Assembly (NCBI GenBank): GCA_030633565.1 | Contig: DAOVSH010000001.1 | Location: 1-57,285 of the forward strand | Length of the DNA: 57,285 nucleotides | DNA from: Candidatus Cloacimonadota bacterium | GTDB lineage: Bacteria; Hydrothermota; E44-bin80 | Direction of reading: 5' to 3' | Part shown: piece after piece, positions 3,073-47,795 of the stretch | Numbering within the stretch: position 1 is the first letter of the stretch | Layout: each line of letters begins with the position of its first letter | Made by a program: the position numbers and the translations under genes | Notes under the pieces: model-generated | The model's database searches: none | The model's input: only the letters and a program-made list of their open reading frames with translations | Told to the model about the DNA's origin: nothing

Positions 3073-3279
3073 TTTTTCACCTCCTTCAAGTTACTTTTTA
3101 GATTTTCTATTCGAATATTTAGATGTAAAATAAATGAGAAGGTTTAAATATATTTATAGGTTATGATATACTGATAGAAATTAAATGGGAATTTCCAAAT
3201 CTCAATATACAAATCACAAACAATACCAAAATTACAATACCAATATATACAAAATCTTATTGAATGTTTTATTGAAACC

Positions 3280-3311
3280 CAAAAAAGCCCCGATTATCGG
3301 GGCTTTTTTTA
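3280..3311 (-). terminator. Rho-independent terminator at the 3' end of the BMC shell gene pair (bidirectional in form)
   Basis: aaaaaaGCCCCGattatCGGGGCttttttt. The hairpin lies immediately after the stop codon at 3309-3311 on the minus strand, with T-runs on both strands. Confidence 0.6.
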
Positions 3312-3752
3312 CATTACCTTCTTAATCTCTTTAATTAATTTATCTTTATTGGATTTAGAGATTTCTCTTCCCTTAATTTCAATTCCGTCCGTATTTCTTG
3401 CAATTTTTCGCAGTTCTGTAACAGATAATTCTTCAAGGATTTTTATATCTGTTTTTTCTCCCTTTGTGGAAGCTGGTTTTGTTGTTGCATGAACTATGGA
3501 ATAGATTTCAATGTGTGGTCTTGGAATTACATGGACTGATATTAATTCCCCTATTTGTGCAGAACGATTTGCAGCTGTTTCAACTGCTGCTTTCACCGCA
3601 GCAACTTCCCCAATAATTTTTACACAGACATATCCTCCAGTTGATAGTTCGTATCCTAAAAGATGAACTTCTGCAGTTTTTGTCATTGCATCTGCTGATT
3701 CAATCGCAGCTGTGAGACCCTTTGTTTCGATCATTCCGAGAGAATATTCCAT
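3309..3752 (-). CDS. BMC-H microcompartment shell protein (PduA/EutM/CcmK fold) with a ~55-aa C-terminal extension
   Basis: MEYSLGMIETKGLTAAIESADAMTKTAEVHLLGYE...GEVAAVKAAVETA...HVIPRPH is the canonical BMC domain. The tail (ELSVTELRKIARNTDGIEIKGREISKSNKDKLIKEI) resembles a Rho_N/SAP-type helix-extension-helix motif. Confidence 0.85.
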   Translation of the reverse strand: MEYSLGMIETKGLTAAIESADAMTKTAEVHLLGYELSTGGYVCVKIIGEVAAVKAAVETAANRSAQIGELISVHVIPRPHIEIYSIVHATTKPASTKGEKTDIKILEELSVTELRKIARNTDGIEIKGREISKSNKDKLIKEIKKVM

Positions 3753-3758
3753 ATTGTT

Positions 3759-4058
3759 TTACTCCAAAAACTTACCTTTATTTGGTAGAATTTCTTCAAC
3801 CTCTTGGTGTGGTCTTGGAATTACATGGACTGAAACGAGTTCACCGACTCTTCCTGCCGCTGCTGCACCTGCATCAGTTGCTGCCTTTACAGCTCCAACG
3901 TCACCTCTGACGAAAACAGTGACATAACCACCACCTATTTTTTCTTTTCCTATAAGATGGACTCTTGCTGCTTTAACCATTGCATCTGCAGCTTCTATTG
4001 AGCCGATAAGACCTCTTGTTTCTATCATTCCAAGTGCTATTCCAATTTTTTCAGCCAT
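3759..4058 (-). CDS. BMC-H microcompartment shell protein (PduA/EutM-like)
   Basis: 99 aa: [84 protein letters not shown]. This is a textbook single-domain hexamer shell protein. It sits 6 bp from the neighbouring shell gene. Confidence 0.9.
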
Positions 4059-13442: not shown

Positions 13443-13599
13443 AACACAATTTACAATAGACAAATTCCAAACAATATACAATTACAAAATCGCAATAAAG
13501 ATTCTTTGGTTTTTGGTAATTGTCTTTTTTGAGGTATTATTTGTGATTTGTTCATTGTGGTTTGGTAATTGTCTTTAAATTTCTATCGTTTTTTTTCTG

Positions 13600-15131: not shown

Positions 15132-15149
15132 AACATCAAGTGAAAAGTC

Positions 15150-15460
15150 AAGATAAATCAGAGGATAGAAGGCAGAGGACAGAAGTCAGAAGGCAGAGGT
15201 CATAATGATTGTGAAACGGGGAAACGGAGTGTCGGAGAAACGGTGCATAAGCGAGTGAGATAAATTGTCTCATTAGTTAGATTAGTTGAATTGGTTTGAT
15301 TGGTTATGGGAACATAGCGTAATTAAGTAATTTGGTTATTGAGTAATTAACAGATAAGATTGCTTTATAAGAGAATATGAAAGTGTATTCGCAATGACAA
15401 ACTAACGGACTAAACGATAATAACGATCAAAACGCTCTAAACGAACTAAACGAAGTTAGT
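15150..15460 (+). repeat. Copy A of a modular intergenic repeat family (purine-rich AGRCAG tract plus modules shared with 22273-22384, 25724-26169, 29590-29960, 38890-39415)
   Basis: Shares long near-identical stretches with the other copies, e.g. tggttatgggaacatagcgtaattaagtaatttggttattgagtaattaacagataagattgctt...gtattcgcaatgacaaactaac...cgatcaaaacgctctaaacgaactaaacg. Confidence 0.8.
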
Positions 15461-15596
15461 TGCTGAAGTTTATAAATATGGTATTACTTCGCATCAGAAA
15501 ATCAGAATATCAGAGTGGAAAGTAAACAGTAAATAGTGATTAGTAAATAGAAAAATAAAATAAACTTTGCGGTCTTTGCGGTAATAATATTGTGTT

Positions 15597-22029: not shown

Positions 22030-22272
22030 GTCTTCACCTCCTCTCTATAGTTTGAGGTTAAACTAAAAGTTTTTATGTGTATATCATAAATTTCAGATTT
22101 TGTCAAAGCATTTTTTAATGATTTCTAAAGAAATATTAATTACACTCTGTTGGATAGTAAACATATAACAGGGGTGTTCTTACTTATTTTCTTCTTGCCT
22201 TTTTAACAGGATAACAGGATGTTCAGGATTAAAGTGTTTTGTTAATGAGGAAAGGGTGTCATTTTGATATTT

Positions 22273-22384
22273 TAATTACTCAATTACCAAATTACTCATT
22301 TACGTTCATTTACAGCGAAGCGTTACTTTAACAGGCGAAGCCGTCTGTTTCACAGCGTCAGCATTTATTTGCAGCGAAGCGTTT
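22273..22384 (-). repeat. Partial copy (E) of the intergenic repeat family plus three direct repeats of CAGCGAAGC, in the 3' flank of addA
   Basis: ttaattactcaattaccaaattactca is the reverse complement of the gtaattaagtaatttggtaattgagtaattaa module. cagcgaagcg, caggcgaagcc and cagcgaagcg recur at roughly 25-35-nt spacing. Confidence 0.5.
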
Positions 22385-25723: not shown

Positions 25724-26169
25724 CTTTTTTCGCCCGTTTCAATAATTAATATCGTTTGGTGATTGATCTGAATGTAAGATATACAATGTACAATGTAATG
25801 TAGCCGCAGGCTCTTGTCCTGAGCGGAGTCGAAGGGTCAGCCTGCATAACGTAACAGCTTCTTCCAGCCGAAGGTTAACTTCCATCCTGAGATAATCGAA
25901 GGATATCTTCCATCCTGAGCTTGTAGTGAGGGACTCGAACTGAGAAGTCGAAGGATTACTTCCAATGCATAGCATTAATTCACTCTCCGTTTCCCCGTTT
26001 CGCATTTGTTCTGTCTTCCGTTATCTGTCTTCTGTCCTCTGACCTCTGTCCTCTGACATCTATCTTCTGTTATCTGTCTTCTGTCTTCTGTTCTATGTCT
26101 TCTGACTTCTGTCCTCTGACATCTGTCTTCTGTTATCTGTCTTCTGACCTCTGACCTCTGTCTTCTGAC
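25724..26169 (-). repeat. Copy D of the modular intergenic repeat (reverse orientation) plus a ~150-bp (TCTGWC)n hexanucleotide microsatellite, lying between addB and addA
   Basis: 25740-26000 is the near-exact reverse complement of 39045-39400 and 29600-29760. 26020-26168 consists of tctgtc/tctgac/tctgtt hexamers. Confidence 0.8.
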
Positions 26170-29043: not shown

Positions 29044-29236
29044 TTATTATTTATTATCATACAAAAAATAAAATGTAAAGAAAAATAAAATGTAGACATA
29101 GTTTACAACTTTACAGCCTCCGTCCCTAATTTTATAATCTTAATAATAATTAAAATAATACTTGACATATTCAATATTATACTGTATATTGTTAATATGA
29201 ATATTGAATATGTTAACATTTAATCTGGGAGTGAAA

Positions 29237-29587
29237 ATGATTACTAAGTGTCCTGTATGTCATGGAGCGTTGGAGATAAGGGAGCTTGGGTGTAATAAAT
29301 GTGATGTAACTATAAGAGGAAAGTTTCCATTTTCAGGTATTTTTCAATTATCACCCGAACAAATGGAGTTTGTGAAAATCTTTTTAAAATCCAGGGGAAA
29401 TATAAAGGAGGTGGAGAAAGAAGTTGGAATTTCATATCCTACTGTAAGAGGTAAACTGAATGATGTTTTGAAAAGCCTTGGAATGGAGCCTGATAAGAAA
29501 TCTATGAAGAGGGAGGAAGTTCTTGAATCCCTTTCAAAGGGAGATATTACTGCTGAGGAAGCAGTTGAAAAGCTAAAGAAGCTATAA
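29237..29587 (+). CDS. DUF2089-family protein (N-terminal C4 zinc ribbon plus HTH-like region) with a C-terminal SHOCT-like motif
   Basis: MITKCPVCHGALEIRELGCNKCDVTIRG...LSPEQMEFVKIFLKSRGNIKEVEKEVGISYPTVRGKL follows the DUF2089 pattern. The tail is REEVLESLSKGDITAEEAVEKLKKL. GGGAG lies 7 nt before the ATG at 29237; the ORF track starts at 29204. Confidence 0.6.
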   Translation: MITKCPVCHGALEIRELGCNKCDVTIRGKFPFSGIFQLSPEQMEFVKIFLKSRGNIKEVEKEVGISYPTVRGKLNDVLKSLGMEPDKKSMKREEVLESLSKGDITAEEAVEKLKKL

Positions 29588-29589
29588 TT

Positions 29590-29960
29590 AAAGAGAATAC
29601 CTGACGGTGAAAAGAAGAGTGAATTAATGCTATGCATTGGAAGTAATCCTTCGACTTCTCAGTTCGAGTCCCTCACTACAAGCTCAGGATGGAAGATATC
29701 CTTCGATTATCTCAGGATGGAAGTTAACCTTCGGCTGGAAGAAGCTGTTACATTATATTGAATTGCAAGTTAAAAGGAGAAAAATTGTTTGATTGGTTAT
29801 GAGAACATATCGTAATTAAGTAATTTGGTAATTGAGTAATTAACAGATAAGATTGCTTCATAAGAAAATATGAAAGTGTATTCGCAATGACAAACTAACT
29901 GACTAAACGACAATAACGATCAAAACGCTCTAAACGAACTAAACGGTGTTATCTATTAAC
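29590..29960 (+). repeat. Copy B of the modular intergenic repeat family
   Basis: It begins 3 nt after the DUF2089 gene stop. The modules gagtgaattaatgctatgcattggaagtaa, ccttcgacttctcagttcgagtccctcactacaagctcaggatggaagatatccttcgattatctcaggatggaagttaaccttcgg, gtaattaagtaatttggtaattgagtaattaacagataag and ...aaacgctctaaacgaactaaacg are shared with copies A, C and D. Confidence 0.85.
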
Positions 29961-29997
29961 TTAAAAACTCAATAACTAAGTAAAGGAGGTGTAGAAG

Positions 29998-30747
29998 ATG
30001 AATGAGAGAATGAAGATATTGAAAATGCTTGAGGAAGGAAAAATAACAGCTGATGAAGCAGCAAAATTGCTTGAAGCAGTTGGAAAGGAGAAGAAGAAAG
30101 ATATTGGTTCAAAAGTTGTTAACGGGATAATGGATGGTGTTTCTTCCATTGTAGGAGCCATACCGGGAACGATTGGTAGTGTTTTTTGTTGTACAATGGG
30201 AGAAGAAAAGGAAATAAAGGTAGAAAAAGGTGATGCATTTATACTGAAATCAGTTGGTTCTTCCATTAAACTCTCTCACAACGATAAGGATGAATTTATA
30301 CTGAAACCAAGTTCTGGTTTGATAAAATCAAAAAAAGAAAATTCCACAATTACATCAAAGATAGTTGGAGGTTCGGTGAAGATTCTCTATCCTTCAAGTT
30401 TATCTGTATCTATAAAGGATGCAGGGGGAACAATTGAGGGAGTTGGTAGTGCAGTATTGTCGCTTAAGCAGGTAGGAGGCTCTACACAATTAACATTCGA
30501 TGAAATAGAAGATGTAAATATAGATTCTAAAGGAGGATCGGTTACTCTCTATGTAGGTGACTGTGATGTTGCATTTGATATTTCTGCACCGAACGGAGAA
30601 GTTGAATTTGATGTTCCTGCAAAGTTTACGGTGGAAAAAGAAGATGAAGTAAAGGGAACAATAAAAAAAGGGAAAGGGAAGCTTTTTATCTATGCATCTT
30701 ATGGTAATGTTTCTGTTTTGCCCTTAAAAGAAAAGGAGGAGAAATGA
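29998..30747 (+). CDS. N-terminal SHOCT-like motif plus DUF4097-like all-beta domain protein (LiaF/YvlB-type putative stress-response protein)
   Basis: 249 aa. N-terminal MNERMKILKMLEEGKITADEAAKLLEAVG. Then repetitive beta-strand segments (GGSVKILYPSS..., GSVTLYVGDCDV..., GNVSVLPLKE) typical of DUF4097. Confidence 0.5.
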   Translation: MNERMKILKMLEEGKITADEAAKLLEAVGKEKKKDIGSKVVNGIMDGVSSIVGAIPGTIGSVFCCTMGEEKEIKVEKGDAFILKSVGSSIKLSHNDKDEFILKPSSGLIKSKKENSTITSKIVGGSVKILYPSSLSVSIKDAGGTIEGVGSAVLSLKQVGGSTQLTFDEIEDVNIDSKGGSVTLYVGDCDVAFDISAPNGEVEFDVPAKFTVEKEDEVKGTIKKGKGKLFIYASYGNVSVLPLKEKEEK

Positions 30748-31004
30748 GTTTAAGAATTTGGGGACCTATAATACTCATCGCACTTGGTGTTCTTTTCTGG
30801 CTTGGTAAATTTGGTATCATTGATTTTTACTGGAGCAGGGATTGGCCAGTTATTCTTATAGTAATTGGTGTTTTCTCTCTTATTAATCTAATAGTCAAAA
30901 AAACGAGGAGAAGAAGTTCCAGGAACAAAAGAGATATATTAACCAAACTCGAAAACGGTAAGATAGATGCGGAAGAGGCAATAAAAAGAATAAAGAGGCT
31001 GTAA
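30744..31004 (+). CDS. Small two-TM membrane protein (LiaF/DUF2154-like N-domain) with a C-terminal SHOCT-like motif
   Basis: 86 aa: two hydrophobic helices (IILIALGVLFWL..., PVILIVIGVFSLINLIV), a basic stretch, then RDILTKLENGKIDAEEAIKRIKRL. Its start overlaps the upstream gene as ATGA. Confidence 0.5.
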   Translation: MSLRIWGPIILIALGVLFWLGKFGIIDFYWSRDWPVILIVIGVFSLINLIVKKTRRRSSRNKRDILTKLENGKIDAEEAIKRIKRL

Positions 31005-31095
31005 TAATAAGACAGAAGACAGATAGAAAGAGAGTAAGGAGTAGGTAGTAGGGAGTGAGCAGTAAACAACAAAAAAAATAAAAAAGGAGGAAGAA

Positions 31096-31491
31096 ATGGA
31101 CGAAAAATTAAAGATATTAAAAATGCTGGAGGATGGCAAGATTTCCAGTGAACAAGCCAATAAATTACTTGAAGCCATCGAAAATAAATCCAATAATATA
31201 GAAAGTAAAGCCAAATGGTTGAAAGTTAAAGTTATTGAAGATGGTTGCCAGAAAGTTAACATAAAGATTCCCTTAAAAGTAATAAGAATTGCAGCGAAGA
31301 TCGGTGGAAAATTAAACATTAATCTTCCAGAAGAAGCAAAGGAAAAACTTGCTGAGAAGGGGATAAACCTTGAAAAAATTGATGATGTTGAAAAATTAAA
31401 TGAGATACTTGAAGAGATTGAAAAAGAAGCACCATTTGAACTTGTAAATGTCGATGAAGGGACAAAAAAAGTTTTTGTTTATATTGAATAG
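31096..31491 (+). CDS. Small acidic protein with an N-terminal SHOCT-like motif
   Basis: 131 aa. N-terminal MDEKLKILKMLEDGKISSEQANKLLEAIENKS, nearly identical to the N-terminus of the 29998 gene. Strong GGAGG Shine-Dalgarno. Followed by a terminator. Confidence 0.45.
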   Translation: MDEKLKILKMLEDGKISSEQANKLLEAIENKSNNIESKAKWLKVKVIEDGCQKVNIKIPLKVIRIAAKIGGKLNINLPEEAKEKLAEKGINLEKIDDVEKLNEILEEIEKEAPFELVNVDEGTKKVFVYIE

Positions 31492-34524: not shown

Positions 34525-36294
34525 ATGTCAAGTTTTTATTTAAATCAGGAGAAAATTGAGGAAGTCAGGGAGTCAGCTGATATTGTAGATATAATCAGCG
34601 AATATATCCCTATTAAAAAGACAGGAAAAAATTATACAGGGCTATGCCCTTTTCATTCTGAGAAAAAACCATCATTCACGGTTTCACCTATAAAACAATT
34701 ATACCATTGCTTCGGGTGTGGTGCAAGCGGGAATGTGATTACTTTTGTAATGAACTACGAATCTGTATCGTTCATTGAAGCAATTGAAATACTTGCAAAA
34801 AAATATGGCATAACGCTTAAAAAAAAGTCTGCTTATAGTGAAGATAAGAAAAAGCAAGAAATAATCAATGCAAATGAGTTTGCATTTAAGCATTTTAAAA
34901 ATAATTTATTTTCTGAATCAGGAAAACACGCACTTGAGTACTTAAAAAAACGGGAAATAAATCTGGATACGATAGAGAAATTTGGATTAGGTTATGCTCC
35001 AGAAGGATGGGATAATCTATTACGAGCAGCTCAAAAAGAGGGTATATCAAATAAAATACTAATTTCTGCTGGTCTTATCGTCGAAAATGAAAAAGGTAAA
35101 TTATATGATAGGTTTAGAAAACGCATTATATTCACTTTCTACAACTCAATTGGAAAGAAAATCGGATTTGCAGGAAGGAATTTGGGAGATGAAATGCCAA
35201 AGTATCTTAACATTTCTGAATCCCCATTATATAAAAAGAGATATACTCTTTATGGTCTTTATCAGTCTAAAGAAGAAATAAGAAAACTTGATAAATGTCT
35301 TATTGTTGAAGGTTATATGGACGTACTTGCATTATATCAAGCAGGGTTCAAAAATACTGTCGCAATTTCCGGCACATCACTGACTGATGAACAGGCAAAA
35401 TTTATTAGGAAATATACAAGAAATATCTATATATCTTTTGATGCTGATAAACCCGGTAAGGAAGCAACTTTAAGGGGTATTTCGATTTTTATACAAAATG
35501 GGCTTATACCCTACATAATGACTCTTGTTAAAGGTAAAGATCCTGATGAAATAGTAAAAAAAGAAGGAAAGGAGATATTTCAAAAAATCGTTGATGCCGC
35601 AGAACACTTTATCGATTTTAAAATGAGGTTCTTACTATCAAAATATAATTTATATAATGCAGTTGAAAAAGCCCAGGTTGTAAGAGAAATAGGTAAGACT
35701 TTGATGCAGGTTAGAGATTTAACCGAAAGACAAATGTGGTTAAGCAACGTTTCTAGGAAGTTATCAGTTGACGAGTCCATTTTGATAATAAATACGAAAA
35801 AATCAAGTAGAGAACAATTTATTCCTTATGTTTCGTCTTTGAATGAGATATGTCATGATCTAGTAGCAATGCTTTCACTGAAACCTGAACGATATGAAGA
35901 GGTTGCAAAAGTTTTTAAAGAGGAGGAATTGCTCGACGAAACCTCACAAAGAATCCTATCCTATATAGGAGGAAAAGTATTAAATATAGATGAAATTTGT
36001 ATAGCAGATATTGTTAACTTAATAGAAGACAGAGATGAGAGGAAAAGGGTGTCCTCAACCGTTTTTAATATTAAAGATGATATCAAAGAAGAGGATTTCG
36101 CGAAAATGATTGATCAGTATATTATTCATATAAAAGCTGATAGATTGAAAGAAAGATGGAAAAGTATCAGACAAGAAATAAAAAGTAGGGGGGGGGATAT
36201 CGAGGGAGTAAGAACCCTTTTAGAAGAACAGAGAAGAATTGCTTCAATATTAAAAAACTTAGGAGGGAATGTTGTTAGCGAAAAGAGTGTTTAA
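34525..36294 (+). CDS. dnaG: DNA primase DnaG
   Basis: CHC2 zinc finger ([32 protein letters not shown]), TOPRIM domain ([21 protein letters not shown]), and a C-terminal DnaB-interaction region. The start is chosen at MSSFYL (34525); the ORF track uses a GTG at 34489. Confidence 0.85.
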
Positions 36295-38005
36295 AATTGA
36301 AGAAATCCTCAAATTTGTAAATAAGGGAAAAATTTCTTTTCAAACATTGAATAACGTTTTACCAAAAGAGCTAATAAAACCTGAGGAACTTGATAATATT
36401 TTTATGTATTTGGATGCTGTTGGTGTTGTGGTTTATGAAGATGAATCTTTTAAGAAAACGAAAGAAAAACCCACAAAACAAGTAGTAAAAGCTGGAGACG
36501 GAAGAACCGCTAAATATAAATCTGATATTCGGATTGATGATCCAATAAGAATTTATCTTAAAGATATGGGAAAGGTATTTCTCTTATCGAGAGAAGGAGA
36601 AGTATCAATTTCTAAGAAAATTGAAAATGGACGTATGTGTATAATGAAGAACCTTTTTTATATACCATTAGGCTTGAGAGAAATTGTATCGTTCTACTAC
36701 AAACTTAAAAATAATGAAATTCGAATCGAGGAATTTATACATGTTGATGTAAATGACTGGCCACACAACTATTCAGGATGGAAGGAAAAGCAGAGAGTTA
36801 TGAGATTGCTTGAAGGGATAGAACGATATAGAAAACAATACTGTGAATCTTTGAAACGTTTAAAAAATTTGAAATATGGTAAAAAAATTATAGAGGAAGA
36901 GAAGAAACTTCAAGCAGTTCATGAGAAGATAATAAGTAAAGTTTCTCGATTAAAAATTCAGGAAAGAGTTATACTGGATGTTATTTATAAACTTAAGGAT
37001 CTCGTTTCTGAGATAAAAAATATTGAAAGAAGAGCAAAGAAAATTGAAAATTCTGTCGGGGTAGATAGAGAAGAAATTCTTGGGCTGAAGAAGAAAAGAA
37101 TAACAAAAAAAGTTATTGAGAGTATCGGTAAAGATAAGGAACTGATAAAAAAAGATATTGATGATTTGGAGTATTTGGTGAACAAGTTAGATGATATAGA
37201 AAAGAATGAAATAATCCTTTTAAAAGATCTCAAGAAATTATTACATACAATAAAGGTTTGGGAAAAGGTAATTTCACAACTCAAAGAAAAGATGATTGAG
37301 GCAAATGTCAGGCTTGTTATTAGCATAGCAAAAAGATATACAAATAGAGGACTTGATTTTCTCGATTTAATCCAGGAAGGAAATACAGGATTAATGAAGG
37401 CAGTTGAAAAATTTGATTACAAAAAAGGTTATAAATTCAGTACATACGCAACATGGTGGATTAGGCAGGCAATTACAAGAGCAATTGCTGATCAGGCAAG
37501 AACAATTAGGGTTCCTGTACATATGATCGAGGTTATTCATAAGGTTGTAAAAGCAACAAGAGAGCTTGTACAGGTGAATGGAAGAGATCCAACACCAGAT
37601 GAAATTTCAAAGAAAATTGGAATTTCTGTATTAAAAGTGAAAAGTGTTTACAAAATTGCCCAGGATACTGTTTCTCTTGACAAACCCATAGGGAATGAAG
37701 AAGAGAGTTTTCTTGGCGATTTTATCCCTGACAGAACTGTTACATCACCTGCACATTCAGCTGCACTGGTATTATTACAGGAAAAACTCCAGAGAGTACT
37801 GGGAACGCTCAGCCCAAGGGAACAGAAGGTGCTCGAGATGAGATTTGGTCTTAGTGACGGCACACCAAAAACCCTTGAGGAAGTTGGGATGATGTTTAAT
37901 GTTACAAGGGAAAGGGTAAGACAGATTGAAACAAAAGCATTAAAGAAATTACGTCATCCTACAAGGGCTCGGAGGTTAAAGGGATTCCTTGAAATGCCGG
38001 AATAG
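36269..38005 (+). CDS. rpoD: RNA polymerase primary sigma factor (sigma-70, RpoD)
   Basis: 578 aa with region 1.1, a long non-conserved insert, region 2 ([54 protein letters not shown]) and regions 3-4. The start is uncertain and may overlap the dnaG end. Confidence 0.85.
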
Positions 38006-38170
38006 AGAGAAATACAGAAGACAGATATCAGATAACAGACAACAGATAACAGATATCAGATAACAGACAACAGACAACAGATATCAGACATCAGACATCA
38101 GACATCAGACAACAGACAACAGATATCAGACATCAGACATCAGACAACAGATAACAGATAACCTCTAACA
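38006..38170 (+). repeat. Hexanucleotide microsatellite (CAGAYA)n, ~27 units, immediately after the rpoD stop
   Basis: cagataacagacaacagataacagatatcagataacagacaacagacaacagatatcagacatcagacatcagacatcagacaacagacaacagatatcagacatcagacatcagacaacagataacagataacc. This is the reverse complement of the (TCTGWC)n tract at 26020-26168. Confidence 0.9.
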
Positions 38171-38199
38171 ACAAAAATGTAACCGCCAAACGTCGTGAA

Positions 38200-38889
38200 T
38201 TGGGGATTGAAATGATTGAATGGGATGACTACTGGAAGGATTATTCTGCATCTAAGGCAGAGAAATGGCTTATATCCGAACGTGATAAAATAATAAAGAG
38301 TTACCTTGATAGAATAAATATAACAAATAAAAAAGTTATTGAAGTAGGTTGTGGTTTTGGCTCAAATCTTCGTCTTATACACAGCACAAGAAACGATGTG
38401 GATTGCTATGCACTTGACAAAAGCAGCGAAGCTGTAAAATCAATAAAAAAAATTATTCCAAATACAGTTGTTGCTGACTGTAGAAAAACTGATTTTCCTG
38501 ATAAAAAGTTTGATCTAATATACAGTTCTGGATTAATGGAGCATTTTAAAGACGAAATTCCATTTCTAAAAGAAATGAAACGAATCTTGAAAGATGATGG
38601 ATACATTATTACTTGTGTTCCTGCCCGTTACTCCCTCTGGAAGCTTTATCAACTGCTACATTTTGGTCTCTGGCAACACGGATACGAGAAAGCTTATAAT
38701 TACAATGGTTTGAATTCACTTTTTTCAGAAAATGAGTTTAGTGTTATAGAAATAAGAGGAATTGATCCCTTCAGTATAAGCGGATTTATAATGAAAATAT
38801 TCAATGCATCTTTTAATCCTATTATTAAAAGAACACCACAAAAGAGCGCATATACAGAACTCTGTGTAATTGCGAAGAAAAGAGTGTAG
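38200..38889 (+). CDS. Class I SAM-dependent methyltransferase
   Basis: 229 aa. Motif I VIEVGCGFGSN, post-I acidic residue ALD, motif II DLIYSSGLMEHF. The start is alternatively at 38212 (MIEWDDYW), which has GGGGA upstream. Confidence 0.6.
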   Translation: MGIEMIEWDDYWKDYSASKAEKWLISERDKIIKSYLDRINITNKKVIEVGCGFGSNLRLIHSTRNDVDCYALDKSSEAVKSIKKIIPNTVVADCRKTDFPDKKFDLIYSSGLMEHFKDEIPFLKEMKRILKDDGYIITCVPARYSLWKLYQLLHFGLWQHGYEKAYNYNGLNSLFSENEFSVIEIRGIDPFSISGFIMKIFNASFNPIIKRTPQKSAYTELCVIAKKRV

Positions 38890-39415
38890 AATAAGACAGA
38901 AGACAGCTCACAGCTAACAGCATACAGCTAACAGCTCACAGCTGACAGCATACAGCTAACAGCATACAGCTAACAGCATAACAAATTGAGTGATTGGTTG
39001 GAAGACAGAACGAATGCGAATCGGAGTATGGTAGTGTCGGAGAAACGGGGAAACGGAGAGTGAATTAATACTATGCATTGGAAGTAAGCACTTCGTGCTG
39101 GAAGATATCCTTCGATTATCTCAGGATGGAAGTTAACCTTCGGTTGGAAGAAGCTGCTACGTTATATTGAATTGCAAGTTAAAAGTAGAAAAATCGTTTG
39201 ATTGGTTTAATTTGTTTAATTAGTTGTATTGGTTATGGGAACATAGCGTAATTAAGTAATTTGGTAATTGAGTAATTAACAGATAAGCAGGCTCTTCGCT
39301 GGAGTGGGTTCGCAATGACAAACTTACGCAGGCTGACCCTTCGACTCCGCTCAGGACAAGAGCCTGCGGCTACCTTACATCGAAAATTTACATCCAGATC
39401 AATAGCCAAACGATA
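38890..39415 (+). repeat. (ACAGCW)n microsatellite followed by copy C of the modular intergenic repeat, with a GC-rich stem module at its right end
   Basis: 38893-38960 are acagct/acagca hexamers. 39045-39300 match copies B and D. 39290-39375 (caggctcttcgctggagtgggttcgcaatgacaaacttacgcaggctgacccttcgactccgctcaggacaagagcctgcggctac) matches the reverse complement of 25800-25860. Confidence 0.85.
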
Positions 39416-39418
39416 TTA

Positions 39419-40450
39419 ATGATGAAAAAGAGAATAATTGATGATTTATGGAATGAAATAGAAAAAATTCCTTTTAGATCAAAGAAATTGAAAGAACCTT
39501 TAGGAACAATACTCTTTTCATTACCAGATATTCCAGCTTATGTATTGCAAAACATGATTAAAAATATTAATTATATACCTAAAACACCTCCTTTCTTTTA
39601 TCCTTATAGAAATAATATATTTATAAAAAGGGTCATTAAAGTAAAAAAAGGCTTAAAAATTAAAACAGTGGTAGGGGAGAGGAAAGGTAATAAAAAAACA
39701 ATAATACTTGTTCATGGTATATTTCAGTCAAAGAATTTTAGATTTATCAGAGATATTGCTGAACATCTTTATAACTACTTTAACTTTAATGTTATTGTTA
39801 TTGATCTAAGAGATCATTTAGAAACAGGTTTTTTATCGCCTTGTTTTCCAGCCTCGTCTGGTTTCTTTGAAGGTAAAGATATACTTGAAATTGCATCGCA
39901 AATAAAATTTAAAAATACTGATCTAAAAATATTTCTCCTTGGTTTTAGCTATGGAGGTGGTATCGTTCTTAATGCGTTAAATTCATATAAAGCAAATAAA
40001 ATAATATCAGGTGTTATAGCTGTTTCTCCAAGTCTGATTCTTGAGGATGTAGTAAATCATATTGATACAAATCCAGGTTTTTTCTCGTCATTCCATCCAA
40101 TATATAATCTTTTTAAGCTATGCTTGTTTTTACGGTATCGTTTTAGAATAAAGACATTTGATGAGTACCTTGAAATAGCTGCTAAAAAGTATGGATTTGA
40201 AAAATATGAGATGATGAGAAGTAGTTCTGTTACAGAATTTATAGATCGAATTGACGTTCCTGCCCTTATTATTCTGTCGAAGGATGATCCTGTAATTCCA
40301 AGATGTAATATGAAGAAAGTTCTTGATGAATCTCAAATTAATAAAAATGTAAAAGTTCTTGTTAAAAATGAAGGTGGGCACATAGCATTTTCATTCATTG
40401 CTTCTTCATGGTTTTTTAAAGTGATTGATAAATTTGCAGAGCAATTCTGA
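39419..40450 (+). CDS. Alpha/beta-hydrolase fold protein (YheT-like putative esterase)
   Basis: 343 aa. HG motif ILVHGIFQS, nucleophile elbow GFSYGGG, and a downstream Asp/His in the expected order. Confidence 0.6.
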   Translation: MMKKRIIDDLWNEIEKIPFRSKKLKEPLGTILFSLPDIPAYVLQNMIKNINYIPKTPPFFYPYRNNIFIKRVIKVKKGLKIKTVVGERKGNKKTIILVHGIFQSKNFRFIRDIAEHLYNYFNFNVIVIDLRDHLETGFLSPCFPASSGFFEGKDILEIASQIKFKNTDLKIFLLGFSYGGGIVLNALNSYKANKIISGVIAVSPSLILEDVVNHIDTNPGFFSSFHPIYNLFKLCLFLRYRFRIKTFDEYLEIAAKKYGFEKYEMMRSSSVTEFIDRIDVPALIILSKDDPVIPRCNMKKVLDESQINKNVKVLVKNEGGHIAFSFIASSWFFKVIDKFAEQF

Positions 40451-40554: not shown

Positions 40555-40781
40555 AATAAGATACGGTTGCAAGGTTAAGGGAAGTTACGTGAAAATCGTA
40601 CGCGGTCCCGCCGCTGTAACCGGGAGCAAAAGCCGCTCTATGCCACTTCGCGTTTGCGTGGGAAGGCGCGGTGATTAGAATAACCCGGGAGCCAGAAGAC
40701 CTGCTTTGTAATCGCAATTCGCCTTCTTCGAGGAAAAGTTAGGTGGAATTTTTTTTATATCCGCTTGAAGAGGTGAAAGCG
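40555..40781 (+). ncRNA. Cobalamin (AdoCbl/B12) riboswitch with intrinsic terminator expression platform
   Basis: A GC-rich island in an AT-rich region. It contains tgccacttcg...gggaaggcgcggtg (the GCCACTG/GGAAGGC core). It has a B12-box-like gagccagaagacctgc (40679-40694). A terminator CCGCTTgaagaggtgaAAGCGGattttttttatt (40751-40784) lies 20 nt before the btuB-like ATG. Confidence 0.7.
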
Positions 40782-40802
40782 GATTTTTTTATTGTTGATA
40801 AT

Positions 40803-42728
40803 ATGACAAATTTATTTTTAAATATTTTATTTTTAATATCTATACAAGGACAGTCTCCAGAACCTTGTTCTTCTGATGTTTATAATAAAGATGAAATTAA
40901 ATGTTATGTTATGCAACCAATAATAGTAACTGCTAAGAGGTGGAAGTGGGTATTGGATACACGCCCTATATCGGGTGAAATAATTAAAATAAAAGAAGTT
41001 GAACGGACATCTGATCTCGGCGGAATTATAAAATCTATGTTAAATGCTGATATTATCTCATACGGAGGGGAAGGAAGCTCACAGATATTATCCCTTCGAG
41101 GAGCATCTCCTGATCAAACTCTTTTTTTCATAGATGGTGTTCAGATTAATACTGCGCAAGGTAGTGGACTAGATATGTCACAGTGGCCTGTTTCATGGAT
41201 AGACCGCATAGAGATTTATAGAGCTGGTAGTTCAGTAGAAATGGGTGCACAAGCAATTGGTGGAATAGTTAATATAATAACAAAAAAAGAAAAAGTAGCA
41301 CATAGATATATTTCGTCAAGAATTGGTTCTTTTGGAAATTTTAATGTCAATACACTCTGGTCGTCAAATTATTTAAATGGTAAATTGCAATCCTGGTTGG
41401 GCGTTCAAAGTAAACAAGGAAAGGGAGATTTCTGGTATCTTGATGAGAATCACGATGCAGTTAGGCAGAGAGAAAATGCTGATTATAAAGACATTAGCGC
41501 AATGACAAAAGTTGGTTATAGTTTTGGTAATAATAAGTTGGAATTAAATTTAAGGATGCAGAATTGCGATAGAGGTTCTCCGGGATCTAGTGAATTTCCT
41601 ACACCTGAAGCCAGATTAAAAGACCAAATGTATTCTATTCAAGCAAAATTAACTTATAACAAAGGGGTTTTTCTTCAATCGGTGTGTAAGACGTATACTA
41701 ATTGGTTTAACAGAGGATATAAAAATCCACATCCGATTATTTATGCCGATGATATGCACAAGAACTTTGCCGTGGCGATTGAAGAAAAGTGTCTTTTATT
41801 TTTCTCGCCAAATTTCAAGGCTATATTTGGGGTGGAGATAAGAAAAGATAAACTGGTGAGTTCAACAGATGGAGAGTGTGAAAGGCAAAAGTTTGGGACT
41901 TTTTTACAGAATGAAATACTTTTAATGAGTGAGAGTGGGAGATACTTGCTTCTATTACCTGGAATTCGTTCTGAATGGGTCGATGAATATCAGTCAGAGA
42001 TATGCCCTGGCATGGGAGTTGTTTATACCTTTCTCGGGGGATTTATTATTCTGAAAGCGTCTACTGAAAAGGTTTTTAGACCCCCTACTTTCGATGATTT
42101 GTTTTGGCCTGCAAGTGCCATGGCTGTTGGAAACCCTGATTTACTACCTGAGGAGGGTAGAAATTCAGATTTGGGAGTGATATTGTATCCTTTATCTTCC
42201 ATTATAAGAACTACATTTACTGGGTTTCATCGTGATGTAACAAATTTGATTAATTGGATTCCCGGCGCAAAGGGAATATGGAGACCTCATAATGTTGGAA
42301 AAGCTAAAATAATGGGCATTGAAGCAGAATTGTCGAGTTACTTTTATCCACTATGTAATATCTATCTTGAAATTGTTTCAAACTATGCATACACAGTAGC
42401 TAAGGATTTGACAGGGGAACGAAATAGCACAGGAAAACAGATTTCAGGAAGACCAGTACATAAAGCTAATTTAAAAGTTTATATTTCGTTTGAGAAATAT
42501 CAAATGTCTACTACCTGGAATTATGTAGGGCTTCGTTATACCACTGCTTCAAATACAAAATGGATTCCAGAGTATATAGTAGGTGATTTTATAATACTTT
42601 ATCAATTAAATGGAAATATTGATTTATCGATTGGAATAAAAAATATTACGGGGAAAAGATATATTGACGCAGTGAATTATCCTGTTCCAGGAAGGAGATT
42701 TAGCGTAAGTATGTCACTTGATTTTTAA
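40803..42728 (+). CDS. btuB: TonB-dependent outer-membrane receptor, BtuB-like (vitamin B12/corrinoid transporter)
   Basis: The start is chosen at the ATG at 40803 (MTNLFLNILFLISIQG, signal peptide), since the longer ORF would begin inside the riboswitch. TonB-box-like QPIIVTAKR; plug domain (ILSLRGASPDQTLFFIDGVQIN); 22-strand barrel region; C-terminal RRFSVSMSLDF. Directly downstream of the cobalamin riboswitch. Confidence 0.75.
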   Translation: MTNLFLNILFLISIQGQSPEPCSSDVYNKDEIKCYVMQPIIVTAKRWKWVLDTRPISGEIIKIKEVERTSDLGGIIKSMLNADIISYGGEGSSQILSLRGASPDQTLFFIDGVQINTAQGSGLDMSQWPVSWIDRIEIYRAGSSVEMGAQAIGGIVNIITKKEKVAHRYISSRIGSFGNFNVNTLWSSNYLNGKLQSWLGVQSKQGKGDFWYLDENHDAVRQRENADYKDISAMTKVGYSFGNNKLELNLRMQNCDRGSPGSSEFPTPEARLKDQMYSIQAKLTYNKGVFLQSVCKTYTNWFNRGYKNPHPIIYADDMHKNFAVAIEEKCLLFFSPNFKAIFGVEIRKDKLVSSTDGECERQKFGTFLQNEILLMSESGRYLLLLPGIRSEWVDEYQSEICPGMGVVYTFLGGFIILKASTEKVFRPPTFDDLFWPASAMAVGNPDLLPEEGRNSDLGVILYPLSSIIRTTFTGFHRDVTNLINWIPGAKGIWRPHNVGKAKIMGIEAELSSYFYPLCNIYLEIVSNYAYTVAKDLTGERNSTGKQISGRPVHKANLKVYISFEKYQMSTTWNYVGLRYTTASNTKWIPEYIVGDFIILYQLNGNIDLSIGIKNITGKRYIDAVNYPVPGRRFSVSMSLDF

Positions 42729-47617: not shown

Positions 47618-47795
47618 ATTTTTTAGATTTGCTGTGCTACAGTAACTTCGTTTACTCCGTTTCGATCGTTAAAATCATTACTGATGTTTTAATCGTTAAT
47701 TGCGTTTGCCTGGTTTTACTTTTCACTTTTAACTTTTTACTTTTAACTTGACTAACATCTTACATCCCATAGTTTTTTGCTTGCGTTTTCTGCAC

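Follow-up and report, generated by a model that had tools for sequence, protein, structure and literature searches.

Heptanucleotide repeat arrays and mosaic spacers around the methyltransferase gene that follows rpoD in a Candidatus Cloacimonadota bacterium

Heptamer arrays at the rpoD-methyltransferase locus

The window, that is the whole 57,285-nt stretch of DNA that was analysed, contains rpoD on the plus strand (36269-38005; Pfam Sigma70 regions 1.1-4), whose sigma-70 protein is identical on contig L003. It is followed by a 206-nt spacer (38006-38211, plus strand), nearly all of which is occupied by a tandem array (A1), and by a gene encoding a class I SAM-dependent methyltransferase of 225 aa (38212-38889, plus strand). 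The methyltransferase matches Pfam Methyltransf_11/23/25 and is of the small-molecule type; NCBIfam gave weak, sub-threshold matches only, and the nearest PDB entry is a phosphoethanolamine N-methyltransferase (E=1e-8). A second array (A2), which continues into further repeat modules, lies between this gene and an alpha/beta hydrolase gene (39419-40450, plus strand; Pfam Abhydrolase_1), and a third array (A3) follows addB on the minus strand. The original prediction had named rpoD, a SAM methyltransferase and addB as the genes flanking the tracts, and family searches confirmed all three, together with addA.

All of the predicted tracts (those after rpoD, the methyltransferase and addB, and the weaker ones at 15150 and after the gene at 30744-31004) were recovered by TRF; their period, predicted to be six, is seven. 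The units around the methyltransferase gene and after addB are CAGAYAW, CAGCWNA and CAGARGN, of which CAG is the sole part common to the three arrays. Array A1 (38015-38162, plus strand) has its first CAG 9 nt past the rpoD TAG stop and consists of a leader unit, CAGAAGA, followed by (CAGAYAW)x20 (CAGACAA 6, CAGATAA 5, CAGACAT 5 and CAGATAT 4); TRF placed it at 38021-38162 with scores of 158 at period 7 and 215 at a higher-order period of 35 nt. Array A2 (38890-38980, plus strand; TRF 38903-38983, score 90-135) is headed by the 17-nt leader AATAAGACAGAAGACAG, which recurs after the stop at 31006-31022, and continues as (CAGCWNA)x11-12. Array A3 (26020-26169, minus strand; TRF 26009-26167, score 143) is (CAGARGN)x~21 and overlaps the addB TAG. 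Weaker tracts were found at 15158-15202 and 31009-31065. As predicted, the arrays lie in 3' flanks: they start 0-10 nt after a stop codon, at four stop codons and with a common leader.

Across the arrays TRF reported 11-23 copies at period 7, with a lag-7 identity of 0.73-0.88; autocorrelation of the rpoD tract was 0.88 at lag 7 versus 0.08 at lag 6, and the remaining tracts behaved alike. Five CAGs in 7-nt phase occurred 32 times in the window versus 0.00 expected, and the observed in-phase CAG count was matched by 0 of 100 dinucleotide shuffles. A chance origin of the heptamer phasing is excluded. Higher-order periods of 14, 28 and 35 nt (TRF) indicate amplification of multi-unit blocks. All arrays in the window are intergenic, contain stop codons and hold no ORF that matches a family; with tandem 7-nt units beyond chance they belong to the intergenic heptanucleotide simple-sequence repeats (SSRs). 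The tracts, then read as period-6 repeats, had been called unusual for bacteria at this length. Repeats of their kind are not particularly unusual: heptanucleotides are reported to be the most abundant class of long SSR in prokaryotes (Mrazek 2007, as cited in PMC4679880 and PMC4692102).

Mosaic spacers headed by the arrays

The second tract had been described as fused to a modular repeat, and module sharing bears this out: the heptamer arrays are the first module of a composite in which octamer and nonamer repeats and GGAAG-linked hairpins come next, in preserved order. In copy C (non-heptamer modules 38981-39418, plus strand), which shares modules with 15132-15596, 25724-26169 and 29588-29997, array A2 is followed by (GAAACGG)-type octamers (39033-39062), GGAAG-linked hairpins (39075-39165), (GTTTRATTG)n (39196-39234), (GTAATTNN)4 (39248-39279), an imperfect long hairpin (39287-39367) and a 3' module (39388-39418) that stops at the start codon of the hydrolase gene. 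Copy B fills the whole addB-addA spacer (25724-26169, minus strand) with A3, octamers, GGAAG hairpins, the M8 hairpin and the 3' module. Copy A (15132-15596, plus strand) carries (CAGARGN)x6 at 15158-15202, octamers, (GTAATTNN)4 and (AACTAAACG)n, and is antisense to both of its flanking genes, CitMHS and an aconitase_C-like gene (Pfam; both on the minus strand). Copy D, in the DUF2089-SHOCT spacer (29588-29997, plus strand), is without heptamers in the window.

Related spacers were found at three further sites. After the LiaF-like gene (31005-31095, plus strand), the 17-nt leader is followed by (RAGTRRG)x5. The dxr-rseP spacer (47618-47795, minus strand) has (GTTAAAA)n, which reads as TTTTAAC on the plus strand at 47710-47754, and a nonamer module of the (AACGA) type, which lies in the opposite orientation to that at 15400-15458. 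A partial mosaic downstream of addA (22204-22384, minus strand), consisting of GCTTCGC hairpin units and the (GTAATTNN) module, is identical in contig L162. Modules are common to at least four loci within 57 kb at 95-99% identity and in the same order; such near-identical dispersed copies would need recent spread or gene conversion. The mosaics extend from the stop codon of the upstream gene to the ribosome-binding region of the next and occupy gaps between co-directional housekeeping genes (rpoD-methyltransferase-hydrolase, addB-addA, dxr-rseP and others). They account for 4.4% of the window and, where spacers of 60 bp or more are counted, for 46% of its intergenic DNA. When the modules were searched in relatives and metagenome loci, (TTTTAAC)n in L046 was the only match. 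Contig L008 carries an unrelated conserved 55-nt module.

The mosaics show no convincing coding potential: the sole ORF inside one of them (25739-26005) matches no family. Neither a sigma-70-like promoter nor an intrinsic terminator was found in the spacers flanking the methyltransferase gene; other spacers in the window have, by eye, an ordinary intrinsic-terminator-like hairpin and T-run. Searched with Rfam at gathering and permissive thresholds, the arrays and modules gave no family, and 37990-39430 gave nothing with an E-value <1. The only gathering-level Rfam match in the window is a cobalamin riboswitch at 40555-40722. The RNA of A1 is predicted to be essentially unstructured (MFE -9.4 kcal/mol over 142 nt), and relative to shuffled sequence there is no gain in stability either for the whole mosaic (z=-1.24) or for its modules (+1.5 to -2.1), among which the hairpin at 39287-39367 is a modest exception (z=-2.08). 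Two motifs are strongly skewed to one strand (CTTCG 16 vs 2, GGAAG 15 vs 0), the GGAAG linkers are constant and spaced 18-20 nt apart with varying hairpin stems behind them, and behind 9 of the 18 GGAWG motifs a perfect hairpin begins at exactly +2 nt, the stems differing. The motif skew, the GGAWG-hairpin spacing and a sense bias at stop codons described below suggest that one strand has been under selection, which pure junk would not be.

A mosaic with its heptamer head might be a non-autonomous MITE- or REPIN-like element that inserts by stop codons, with the arrays as its target or terminal module. The near-identical modules at dispersed loci speak for such an element, as do modules that are present in one strain and absent from another between identical flanks, relatives without mosaics at the corresponding loci, and the occurrence of one 17-nt leader directly behind two different stop codons. 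However, no terminal inverted repeats join the ends of copies A, B and C, and Pfam and NCBIfam scans of 45 of the 49 window ORFs gave no transposase, integrase, RT or RAYT. Strains differ by replaced segments and by subsets that keep the module order, not by clean insertions; no target-site duplication is definable, the relatives are too diverged for empty sites to be recognised, and the conserved module order fits deletion derivatives or gene conversion better. The tracts had also been suggested as a possible hotspot for insertion of the modular element; yet the arrays are that element's own first module, and the differences between its copies look like replacements and ordered subsets more than clean insertions. 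We therefore consider a mobile element unlikely as the origin of the mosaics.

Strain variation and the position of the methyltransferase gene

The window was compared with contigs of the same species whose coding DNA is 99.1-100% identical. In contig L001 the rpoD-methyltransferase spacer holds a different, 216-nt mosaic without heptamers in place of A1, although identity on either side is 100% (77 nt of rpoD; 0/678 mismatches in the methyltransferase CDS). The divergence sets in at the stop codon's third base and ends 9 nt before the ATG, and the replacement draws on the same module families, in diverged form but unchanged order. In L036, copy D lacks the (GTAATTNN)4 module and the tract after the LiaF-like gene has one extra TAGTAGG unit (+7 nt). 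Contig L037 begins 168 nt ahead of the SHOCT gene; it opens with repeats of the GGCAGAA type at the place that the last hairpin modules occupy in the window. Array A2 has 12 units in the window, ~33 in L001 and ~44 in L041, counts that rest on short-read assemblies prone to collapse or inflate long repeats; the +7 nt step in the short tract and the module swaps lie safely within read length. Copy number thus changes in unit steps between close strains, in line with the predicted slippage-prone, length-polymorphic nature of the tracts. Judged by this contig comparison, the spacers are hypervariable between strains with identical flanking genes.

That the tracts are artefacts of assembly is very improbable. 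Short-read contigs of the species do terminate inside repeats, and the A2 counts do differ between assemblies. Against this, both array junctions are reproduced in the independent assemblies L002 and L003 (the middle of the rpoD array, 38105-38140, lies outside independent coverage), the whole 446-bp addB-addA spacer including full A3 is reproduced in L163 and L164 with one SNP, and similar CAG-type arrays occur in 120 unrelated metagenome contigs (GC 33-70%).

The methyltransferase had been proposed as possible cargo of a repeat-bounded mobile cassette, a proposal against which the gene's presence at the same position in all relatives was to count. An orthologue with 71-78% identity lies directly after rpoD in all four relatives with sequence there (L004-L007), where the intervening spacers are 15-95 nt and without a long array; the nearest relative has a short array of another heptamer, (AATTCCC)x3.5. 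The check proposed for relatives' rpoD loci, whether they lack the tract and the gene, thus finds the long tract lacking and the methyltransferase gene present. The hydrolase gene has no homologue in L004-L008, and L005-L007 carry other genes downstream of the methyltransferase gene. The variable gene position expected of a mobile cassette was not seen: the gene follows rpoD in all of these relatives and in both strain variants. Although it is bracketed by two arrays of one general type, these consist of different units and are direct rather than inverted, and addB, the LiaF-like gene and dxr are also followed by arrays. On the evidence of gene order, the methyltransferase is a long-standing resident neighbour of rpoD, not mobile cargo, because the orthologue follows rpoD in four relatives and stays put where the spacers of strains differ; the chance that it is cargo is minimal.

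Taken together, the tracts are probably heptanucleotide SSRs that head non-coding, order-preserving mosaic spacers driven by slippage and deletion, with a resident methyltransferase gene between two of them. Since no promoter or terminator can be recognised in the mosaics, the operon mRNA most likely includes them. Through unequal exchange or replication slippage the arrays would change by single 7-nt units or by several units at once, and the mosaics would be reshaped as their many short direct repeats recombine or are deleted across. Each copy would on this view retain its own subset of a longer composite, and strains would come to differ in their spacers while the flanking genes stay identical; slippage and deletion are here inferred from end states seen by comparing contigs. 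Any function would be at most modulatory, such as unstructured spacing after the stop, or hairpins affecting mRNA stability or coupling. Sister strains and relatives do without whole arrays or modules.

These spacers offer a natural experiment, in which identical flanking genes are found with an array, with a different mosaic, or with 12-44 units (on the short-read counts given above), in the essential operons of rpoD, addBA and dxr-rseP. In practical terms, they break short-read assemblies of the lineage, yield spurious ORFs and false impressions of a cassette in annotation, and could be used as strain markers.

Strand orientation and comparison with known systems

The tracts had been predicted to be consistently purine-rich in the transcribed sense. 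This held for 5 of the 6 window arrays; the exception is the array at 15158, which is antisense to both neighbouring genes and, read as transcribed, has a purine share of 0.22. Purines reach only 57% in the CAGCWNA array. In an independent metagenome sample, among arrays that abut a stop codon, the purine-rich strand was the sense strand in 36:15 (p=0.005), or 32:8 in a tighter adjacency window, and the gaps between stop and array clustered at about 0. A first orientation test had shown no bias (24:17 and 22:20); it relied on the longest open frame at 75 nt from the array and was superseded by stop-codon adjacency because open frames run through stop-free arrays. A Rho-polarity account of the bias predicted that a co-directional next gene would be rarer after pyrimidine-sense arrays, and found no support with what were crude ORF calls (23/29 vs 10/11, p=0.65). 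A universal CAG core was rejected as a general rule, 130 metagenome arrays varying almost evenly over the seven positions (0.14-0.31, taken outside the pattern-matched part of the unit). Arrays that abut stop codons with their purine-rich strand as sense are a regularity that can be tested.

A transcript-level role, hinted at earlier for the tracts, is conceivable: the arrays and hairpins might be RNA platforms in operon transcripts that tune the flanking cistrons, offering either XAG-N4 sites of HutP or TRAP geometry to an oligomeric RNA-binding protein or a CsrA-type GGA sponge. HutP binds XAG sites at U498, U505 and U512 and recognises only their A and G (PMC2425495). The arrays resemble HutP and TRAP sites in their 7-nt spacing of XAG on unpaired RNA, with one CAG per 7 nt over about 20 units predicted to be single-stranded. 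The sense orientation in the window and at metagenome stop codons, and the one-strand GGAAG and CTTCG motifs with varying stems behind constant linkers, also fit such platforms. HutP, however, uses 3+3 motifs in a terminator leader, whereas 12-44 motifs here follow stop codons with no terminator to antagonise. No HutP domain or other partner protein was found in the 45 window ORFs scanned; tblastn gave no CsrA in the window or the fetched loci, which is uninformative because so little sequence was searched. Furthermore, the arrays are dispensable (that between rpoD and the methyltransferase gene is missing in L001 and four relatives), the three arrays agree in CAG alone, the metagenome arrays have no conserved core, and the modules, which match no Rfam family, fold no better than shuffled sequence. 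RNA platforms are accordingly a doubtful explanation, to which we give little weight. In its boldest form, the idea would make the purine-rich CAG-type array, an unstructured periodic XAG-N4 track lying in sense orientation exactly at stop codons, a post-transcriptional device widespread across contigs of 33-70% GC: the post-termination ribosome, or else an oligomeric RNA-binding protein, would use the array and set expression of the next cistron, unit number would tune operon stoichiometry, and the GGAAG-linker hairpin modules would act as a protein sponge in Cloacimonadota. This is a speculative idea with a slim chance of being right; if true, strain changes in unit number would be a tuning knob and not noise.

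SSR-based phase variation, in which the unit number of a repeat in a promoter or in the 5' part of a coding region switches expression, does not describe the slippage-prone SSRs of this locus: they lie after stop codons and outside coding sequence, in spacers without a promoter-like site, and their 7-nt unit is not a multiple of 3. The mosaics share with REP and BIME sequences of E. coli, whose REPs near stop codons affect ribosomes and mRNA (PMC12306157), the form of (here probably) co-transcribed, strain-variable extragenic mosaics in which hairpins and linkers keep a conserved order between or after operon genes. Unlike REP and BIME, they have no RAYT in the window and are dominated by 7-9-nt tandem repeats; folding is no better than that of shuffled sequence, and in place of imperfect, stable palindromes of ~35 nt there are hairpins of 4-5 bp.

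The GGGNATC repeats of Xanthomonas and Nostoc are about 90% intergenic and lie mostly between co-oriented ORFs (Rehm 2015, PMC4692102). Both these and the present arrays lie close behind stop codons on the coding strand, and both vary widely in length and sequence among close relatives (PMC4692102). GGGNATC units are, however, G-rich and quadruplex-forming, whereas the units here are rich in A, hold a single G each in two of the arrays, and are unable to form G4; and no overall strand preference was reported for GGGNATC (PMC4692102), whereas arrays that abut a stop here favour the sense strand.

TAACTGA and other intergenic heptamer direct repeats occur in Beggiatoaceae, Cyanobacteria and Bacteroidetes (MacGregor 2015, PMC4679880). 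As with TAACTGA, the present repeats form multi-heptamer intergenic assemblages with 7-nt indel steps and contigs ending inside repeats, and close relatives have the same gene neighbours with short repeat-free spacers (PMC4679880); in one register the units even read TAACAGA and TAACAGC, one base off TAACTGA. The repeats of Guaymas Beggiatoa, in contrast, mostly sit immediately ahead of start codons and take the place of the SD, whereas the arrays here begin at stop codons, the next gene keeps its own start region, and the arrays are longer (12-44 units).

The function of heptamer repeats has been a long-standing question since the cyanobacterial STRRs were described. The units of STRR1-3 are CCCCAGT, TTGGTCA and CAACAGT. 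STRRs have 7-bp units without known function, for which transcript stability or translational coupling has been proposed; like the arrays described here, they are 7-nt tandem units between operon genes, with several unit families per genome and sometimes hairpin-pairing (PMC2670836). By strict definition the present arrays differ from STRRs: the host belongs to Cloacimonadota, as its RpoD relatives indicate, the units are CAGAYAW, CAGCWNA and CAGARGN, and the arrays head a longer mosaic of further repeat modules. To the class of intergenic heptanucleotide repeats that includes STRR, TAACTGA and GGGNATC, they add another phylum and further unit families.

Heptanucleotide arrays beside the methyltransferase gene

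Inspection of the sequence showed that a 225-aa gene is bracketed by two tandem arrays at 38006-39415. The original prediction was right about the two tracts, their coordinates and the gene calls, and called the tracts hexanucleotide repeats; Tandem Repeats Finder and autocorrelation both gave a period of 7 instead. Period-7 arrays were found after rpoD (38021-38162; 20.3 copies, with a higher-order 35-nt period, score 215), after the methyltransferase gene (38903-38983; 11.4 copies, with higher-order 14- and 28-nt periods) and after addB (26009-26167; 22.7 copies), and Tandem Repeats Finder assigned period 7 or 14 to weaker tracts at 15158-15202 and 31009-31065. Autocorrelation of the rpoD tract was 0.88 at lag 7 versus 0.08 at lag 6, and the other tracts behaved likewise. 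The units are CAGAYAW, CAGCWNA and CAGARGN, and 7-nt-phased runs of five CAGs occur 32 times in the window versus 0.00 times in 100 dinucleotide-preserving shuffles. The tracts are real, with the period corrected to 7. Read in the transcribed sense, five arrays have purine fractions of 0.66, 0.57, 0.77, 0.82 and 0.73, and the antisense array at 15158 has one of 0.22; five of six arrays have the same orientation, a proportion that alone is not significant.

The methyltransferase (38212-38889) is of a generic small-molecule type, with sub-threshold NCBIfam matches only and phosphoethanolamine N-methyltransferase as its nearest solved relative (E=1e-8). The suggestion that it might be cargo of the repeats was ruled out by conserved gene order, the condition for rejection named with the original prediction, as an orthologue (71-78% identity) directly follows rpoD in all four relatives with sequence at this position (L004-L007); judged by this position, it is a resident gene. 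The rpoD-methyltransferase spacers of these relatives measure 76, 94, 95 and 15 nt and hold no long array. That of the nearest relative contains a small array of another heptamer, (AATTCCC)x3.5, and its contig stops in a GCGTARR run just past the methyltransferase stop codon. The relative E44_bin80 (L008:6956-7136) has a different short-period repeat after rpoD, made of (GGTAACG)-like octamers, together with a GC-rich hairpin ahead of the contig end, so repeat-rich spacers here are not confined to the species of the window. The closest RpoD relatives are Candidatus Cloacimonadota MAGs (79-83% identity). The dnaG and rpoD ORFs share 26 nt (36269-36294), and the tight dnaG-rpoD-methyltransferase arrangement is also present in relatives.

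Order-preserving mosaic spacers

An all-vs-all comparison of the intergenic regions of the window defined a family of mosaic spacers in which the heptamer array is the first module. The modules follow a fixed sequence: first the leader (A)AGACAGAAGACAG, then the heptamer array, then (GAAACGG)-type octamers and GGAAG-linked hairpins; next come (GTTTRATTG)n and (GTAATTNN)4, followed by either a longer imperfect hairpin or (AACTAAACG)n. The last is a 3′ module, which extends to the start codon of the next gene. Copies are located at 15132-15596, 25724-26169 (the addB/addA gap), 29588-29997 and 38890-39418. An incomplete one lies at 22204-22384, and related spacers occupy 31005-31095 and 47618-47795. 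The subset of modules differs per copy, while order is constant and identity is 95-99%. Together these spacers total 2506 bp; they account for 4.4% of all DNA in the window, and for 46% of its intergenic DNA (spacers of at least 60 bp). Arrays start 0-10 nt past the stops of rpoD, the methyltransferase gene, the LiaF-like gene and addB, the addB stop TAG overlapping the first array unit, and one identical 17-nt leader was found after two different stop codons.

No sigma-70-like promoter or intrinsic terminator was found on the coding strand of the spacers flanking the methyltransferase gene, whereas spacers elsewhere in the window carry intrinsic-terminator-like hairpins with T-runs, identified by eye. 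On this basis the mosaics are tentatively taken to be operon-internal and co-transcribed, tentatively as promoters in this phylum may follow another consensus than the one used.

An Rfam search returned no family for the arrays or mosaic modules, and RNA folding of the non-heptamer part of the copy at 38890-39418 showed no gain over shuffled sequence (z=-1.24 sense, -0.21 antisense). Single modules gave folding z values from +1.5 to -2.1, and the arrays were essentially unstructured. The mosaic elements are clearly stranded (CTTCG 16 vs CGAAG 2; GGAAG 15 vs CTTCC 0), and for 9 of the 18 GGAWG motifs (background 15%) a perfect hairpin of 4-5 bp comes next, at exactly +2 nt, with a stem sequence that changes from unit to unit.

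An 88-aa ORF at 25739-26005 (-), which a gene caller could misannotate, lies wholly inside mosaic modules, has no family match and is almost certainly spurious. Separately, a 55-nt non-coding module occurs as two inverted copies (3173-3227 and 13533-13587) and at L008:554-620; its conservation of ~90% in this relative, where RpoD is merely 79% identical, is far above that of the mosaics, and the module is a candidate functional non-coding element.

Genes beside the arrays and mosaics include dnaG, rpoD, the class I SAM methyltransferase, an alpha/beta hydrolase, addB/addA, a DUF2089/SHOCT/LiaF-like cluster and CitMHS, among others. In that cluster (29204-31491, +), a DUF2089 zinc-ribbon/HTH gene is followed by three genes each with a SHOCT-like DUF2089-C domain, one also with a LiaF-like transmembrane region, all parted by mosaic spacers. 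The remaining genes are housekeeping (frr-uppS-cdsA-dxr-rseP, rpsI-rplM, mutS2, glycoside hydrolases). No transposase, integrase, reverse transcriptase or RAYT was found among the 45 of 49 window ORFs scanned. A cobalamin riboswitch (40555-40722, +; Rfam RF00174, 97.5 bits) directly upstream of a TonB-dependent receptor gene (40743-42728) looks like a typical B12-uptake arrangement, and two adjoining BMC-domain (microcompartment shell) genes at 3309-4058 (-) have in common a 39-nt direct repeat of 87% identity and are probably recent paralogues.

Variation between same-species contigs

Same-species contigs from other samples and assemblies were found by exact-protein look-up; in coding DNA they match the window at 99.1-100% identity. 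The unit count of the post-methyltransferase array is 12 in the window, roughly 33 in L001 and roughly 44 in L041, the counts for arrays exceeding read length resting on short-read assemblies; edges are kept and interiors vary. The short tract after the LiaF-like gene has exactly one extra TAGTAGG unit in L036 and is different again in L037. Length polymorphism between strains, as anticipated from the repeats, was thus borne out. The DUF2089 spacer of L036 has no (GTAATTNN)4 module, and the L037 contig, whose first base is 168 nt before the SHOCT gene, opens in GGCAGAA-type repeats at the position of the last hairpin modules of the window. The 446-bp addB-addA mosaic with its 21-unit array is the same in two further assemblies apart from a single SNP, showing that the arrays are real and that variation does not extend to every locus.

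In L001, a heptamer-free 216-nt mosaic takes the place of the entire spacer between rpoD and the methyltransferase gene. The swap starts at base three of the stop codon and stops 9 nt short of the ATG, yet the methyltransferase CDS has 0/678 mismatches and the final 77 nt of rpoD are identical. The L001 spacer consists of diverged forms of the same module families in unchanged order; loss of different parts of a longer ancestral composite, or exchange between coexisting alleles, would be its most economical explanation. A dedicated cassette exchanger would be a less economical source of the swap. Slippage, deletion and recombination would explain the variation overall, and the tracts are hypervariable heptanucleotide repeats at the head of lineage-specific mosaic operon spacers. 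Short-read contigs of this species (L001-L003, L037, L162, L164, L165) regularly end within arrays or modules, and MAGs of this lineage are therefore expected to be fragmented at, and depleted of, mosaic spacers.

Arrays in other metagenomes and known heptanucleotide repeats

A metagenome collection scanned for the leader plus three further in-phase CAGs gave at least 120 matching contigs (33-70% GC). The matches listed (L042-L161) hold 130 CAGARGN-type arrays with a median of 65 nt, of which 83 are at least 56 nt and 23 (about 18%) are paired with an inverted array no more than 120 nt away. A universal CAG core was rejected, as variation across these 130 arrays was near-even over the seven positions outside the pattern-matched part.

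A first, crude orientation test on the metagenome arrays showed no bias. A targeted test of arrays with an edge -30 to +45 nt from the stop of a reading frame 100 aa or longer showed that, among the matches listed, the CAG strand is more often the sense than the antisense strand (36:15, p=0.005; 32:8, p=0.0002 in a tighter window; 15:5 where the stop strictly precedes the array), with stop-to-array gaps concentrated at -12 to +5 nt. This stop-adjacent bias lends modest independent support to the proposed 3′ placement and sense-strand purine richness, to which the array at 15158 in the window is an exception. Rho polarity was considered as a cause of the bias, and its prediction failed.

In L046 (Ga0268284_1000680, 37% GC), every spacer of an operon that is gas-vesicle-like from its translated sequence (L046:9900-12140) has, in this order, a sense (CAGAYAA)n array with the stop codon inside, an inverted (TCTGNNN)n array, an SD and the ATG. 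Pairing between the two arrays could give hairpins whose arms are ~50 nt long. A (TTTTAAC)n module is common to L046 and the window (47710-47754).

Heptanucleotide repeats between genes form an established but poorly understood class. Among the long simple-sequence repeats of prokaryotes, heptamers are reportedly the commonest, which may reflect how much DNA the polymerase contacts at a time (Mrazek 2007, cited in PMC4679880 and PMC4692102). The STRRs of cyanobacteria have a 7-bp unit and occupy operon spacers; roles in transcript stability or translational coupling have been proposed for them (PMC2670836). Beggiatoaceae, Cyanobacteria and Bacteroidetes have TAACTGA repeats and multi-heptamer assemblages that are missing at the same loci in close relatives and at which contigs break (PMC4679880). 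In Xanthomonas and Nostoc, most GGGNATC repeats are situated 0-50 bp past stops, in coding-strand orientation and with co-oriented ORFs on either side, and close relatives differ extensively in them (PMC4692102). The window locus fits this class in every defining feature tested. Its 7-nt XAG spacing matches the binding geometry of HutP (PMC2425495), an analogy that offers a lead; no HutP- or CsrA-like gene was found among the 45 of 49 window ORFs scanned, and an RNA-level role for the arrays is possible. The locus is useful mainly because it provides a naturally occurring series of alleles with which the effects of bacterial heptamer arrays can be tested. It differs from the known heptanucleotide repeats in its phylum, its units and its attached mosaic of octamers, nonamers and hairpins, which is reminiscent of E. 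coli BIMEs (PMC12306157).
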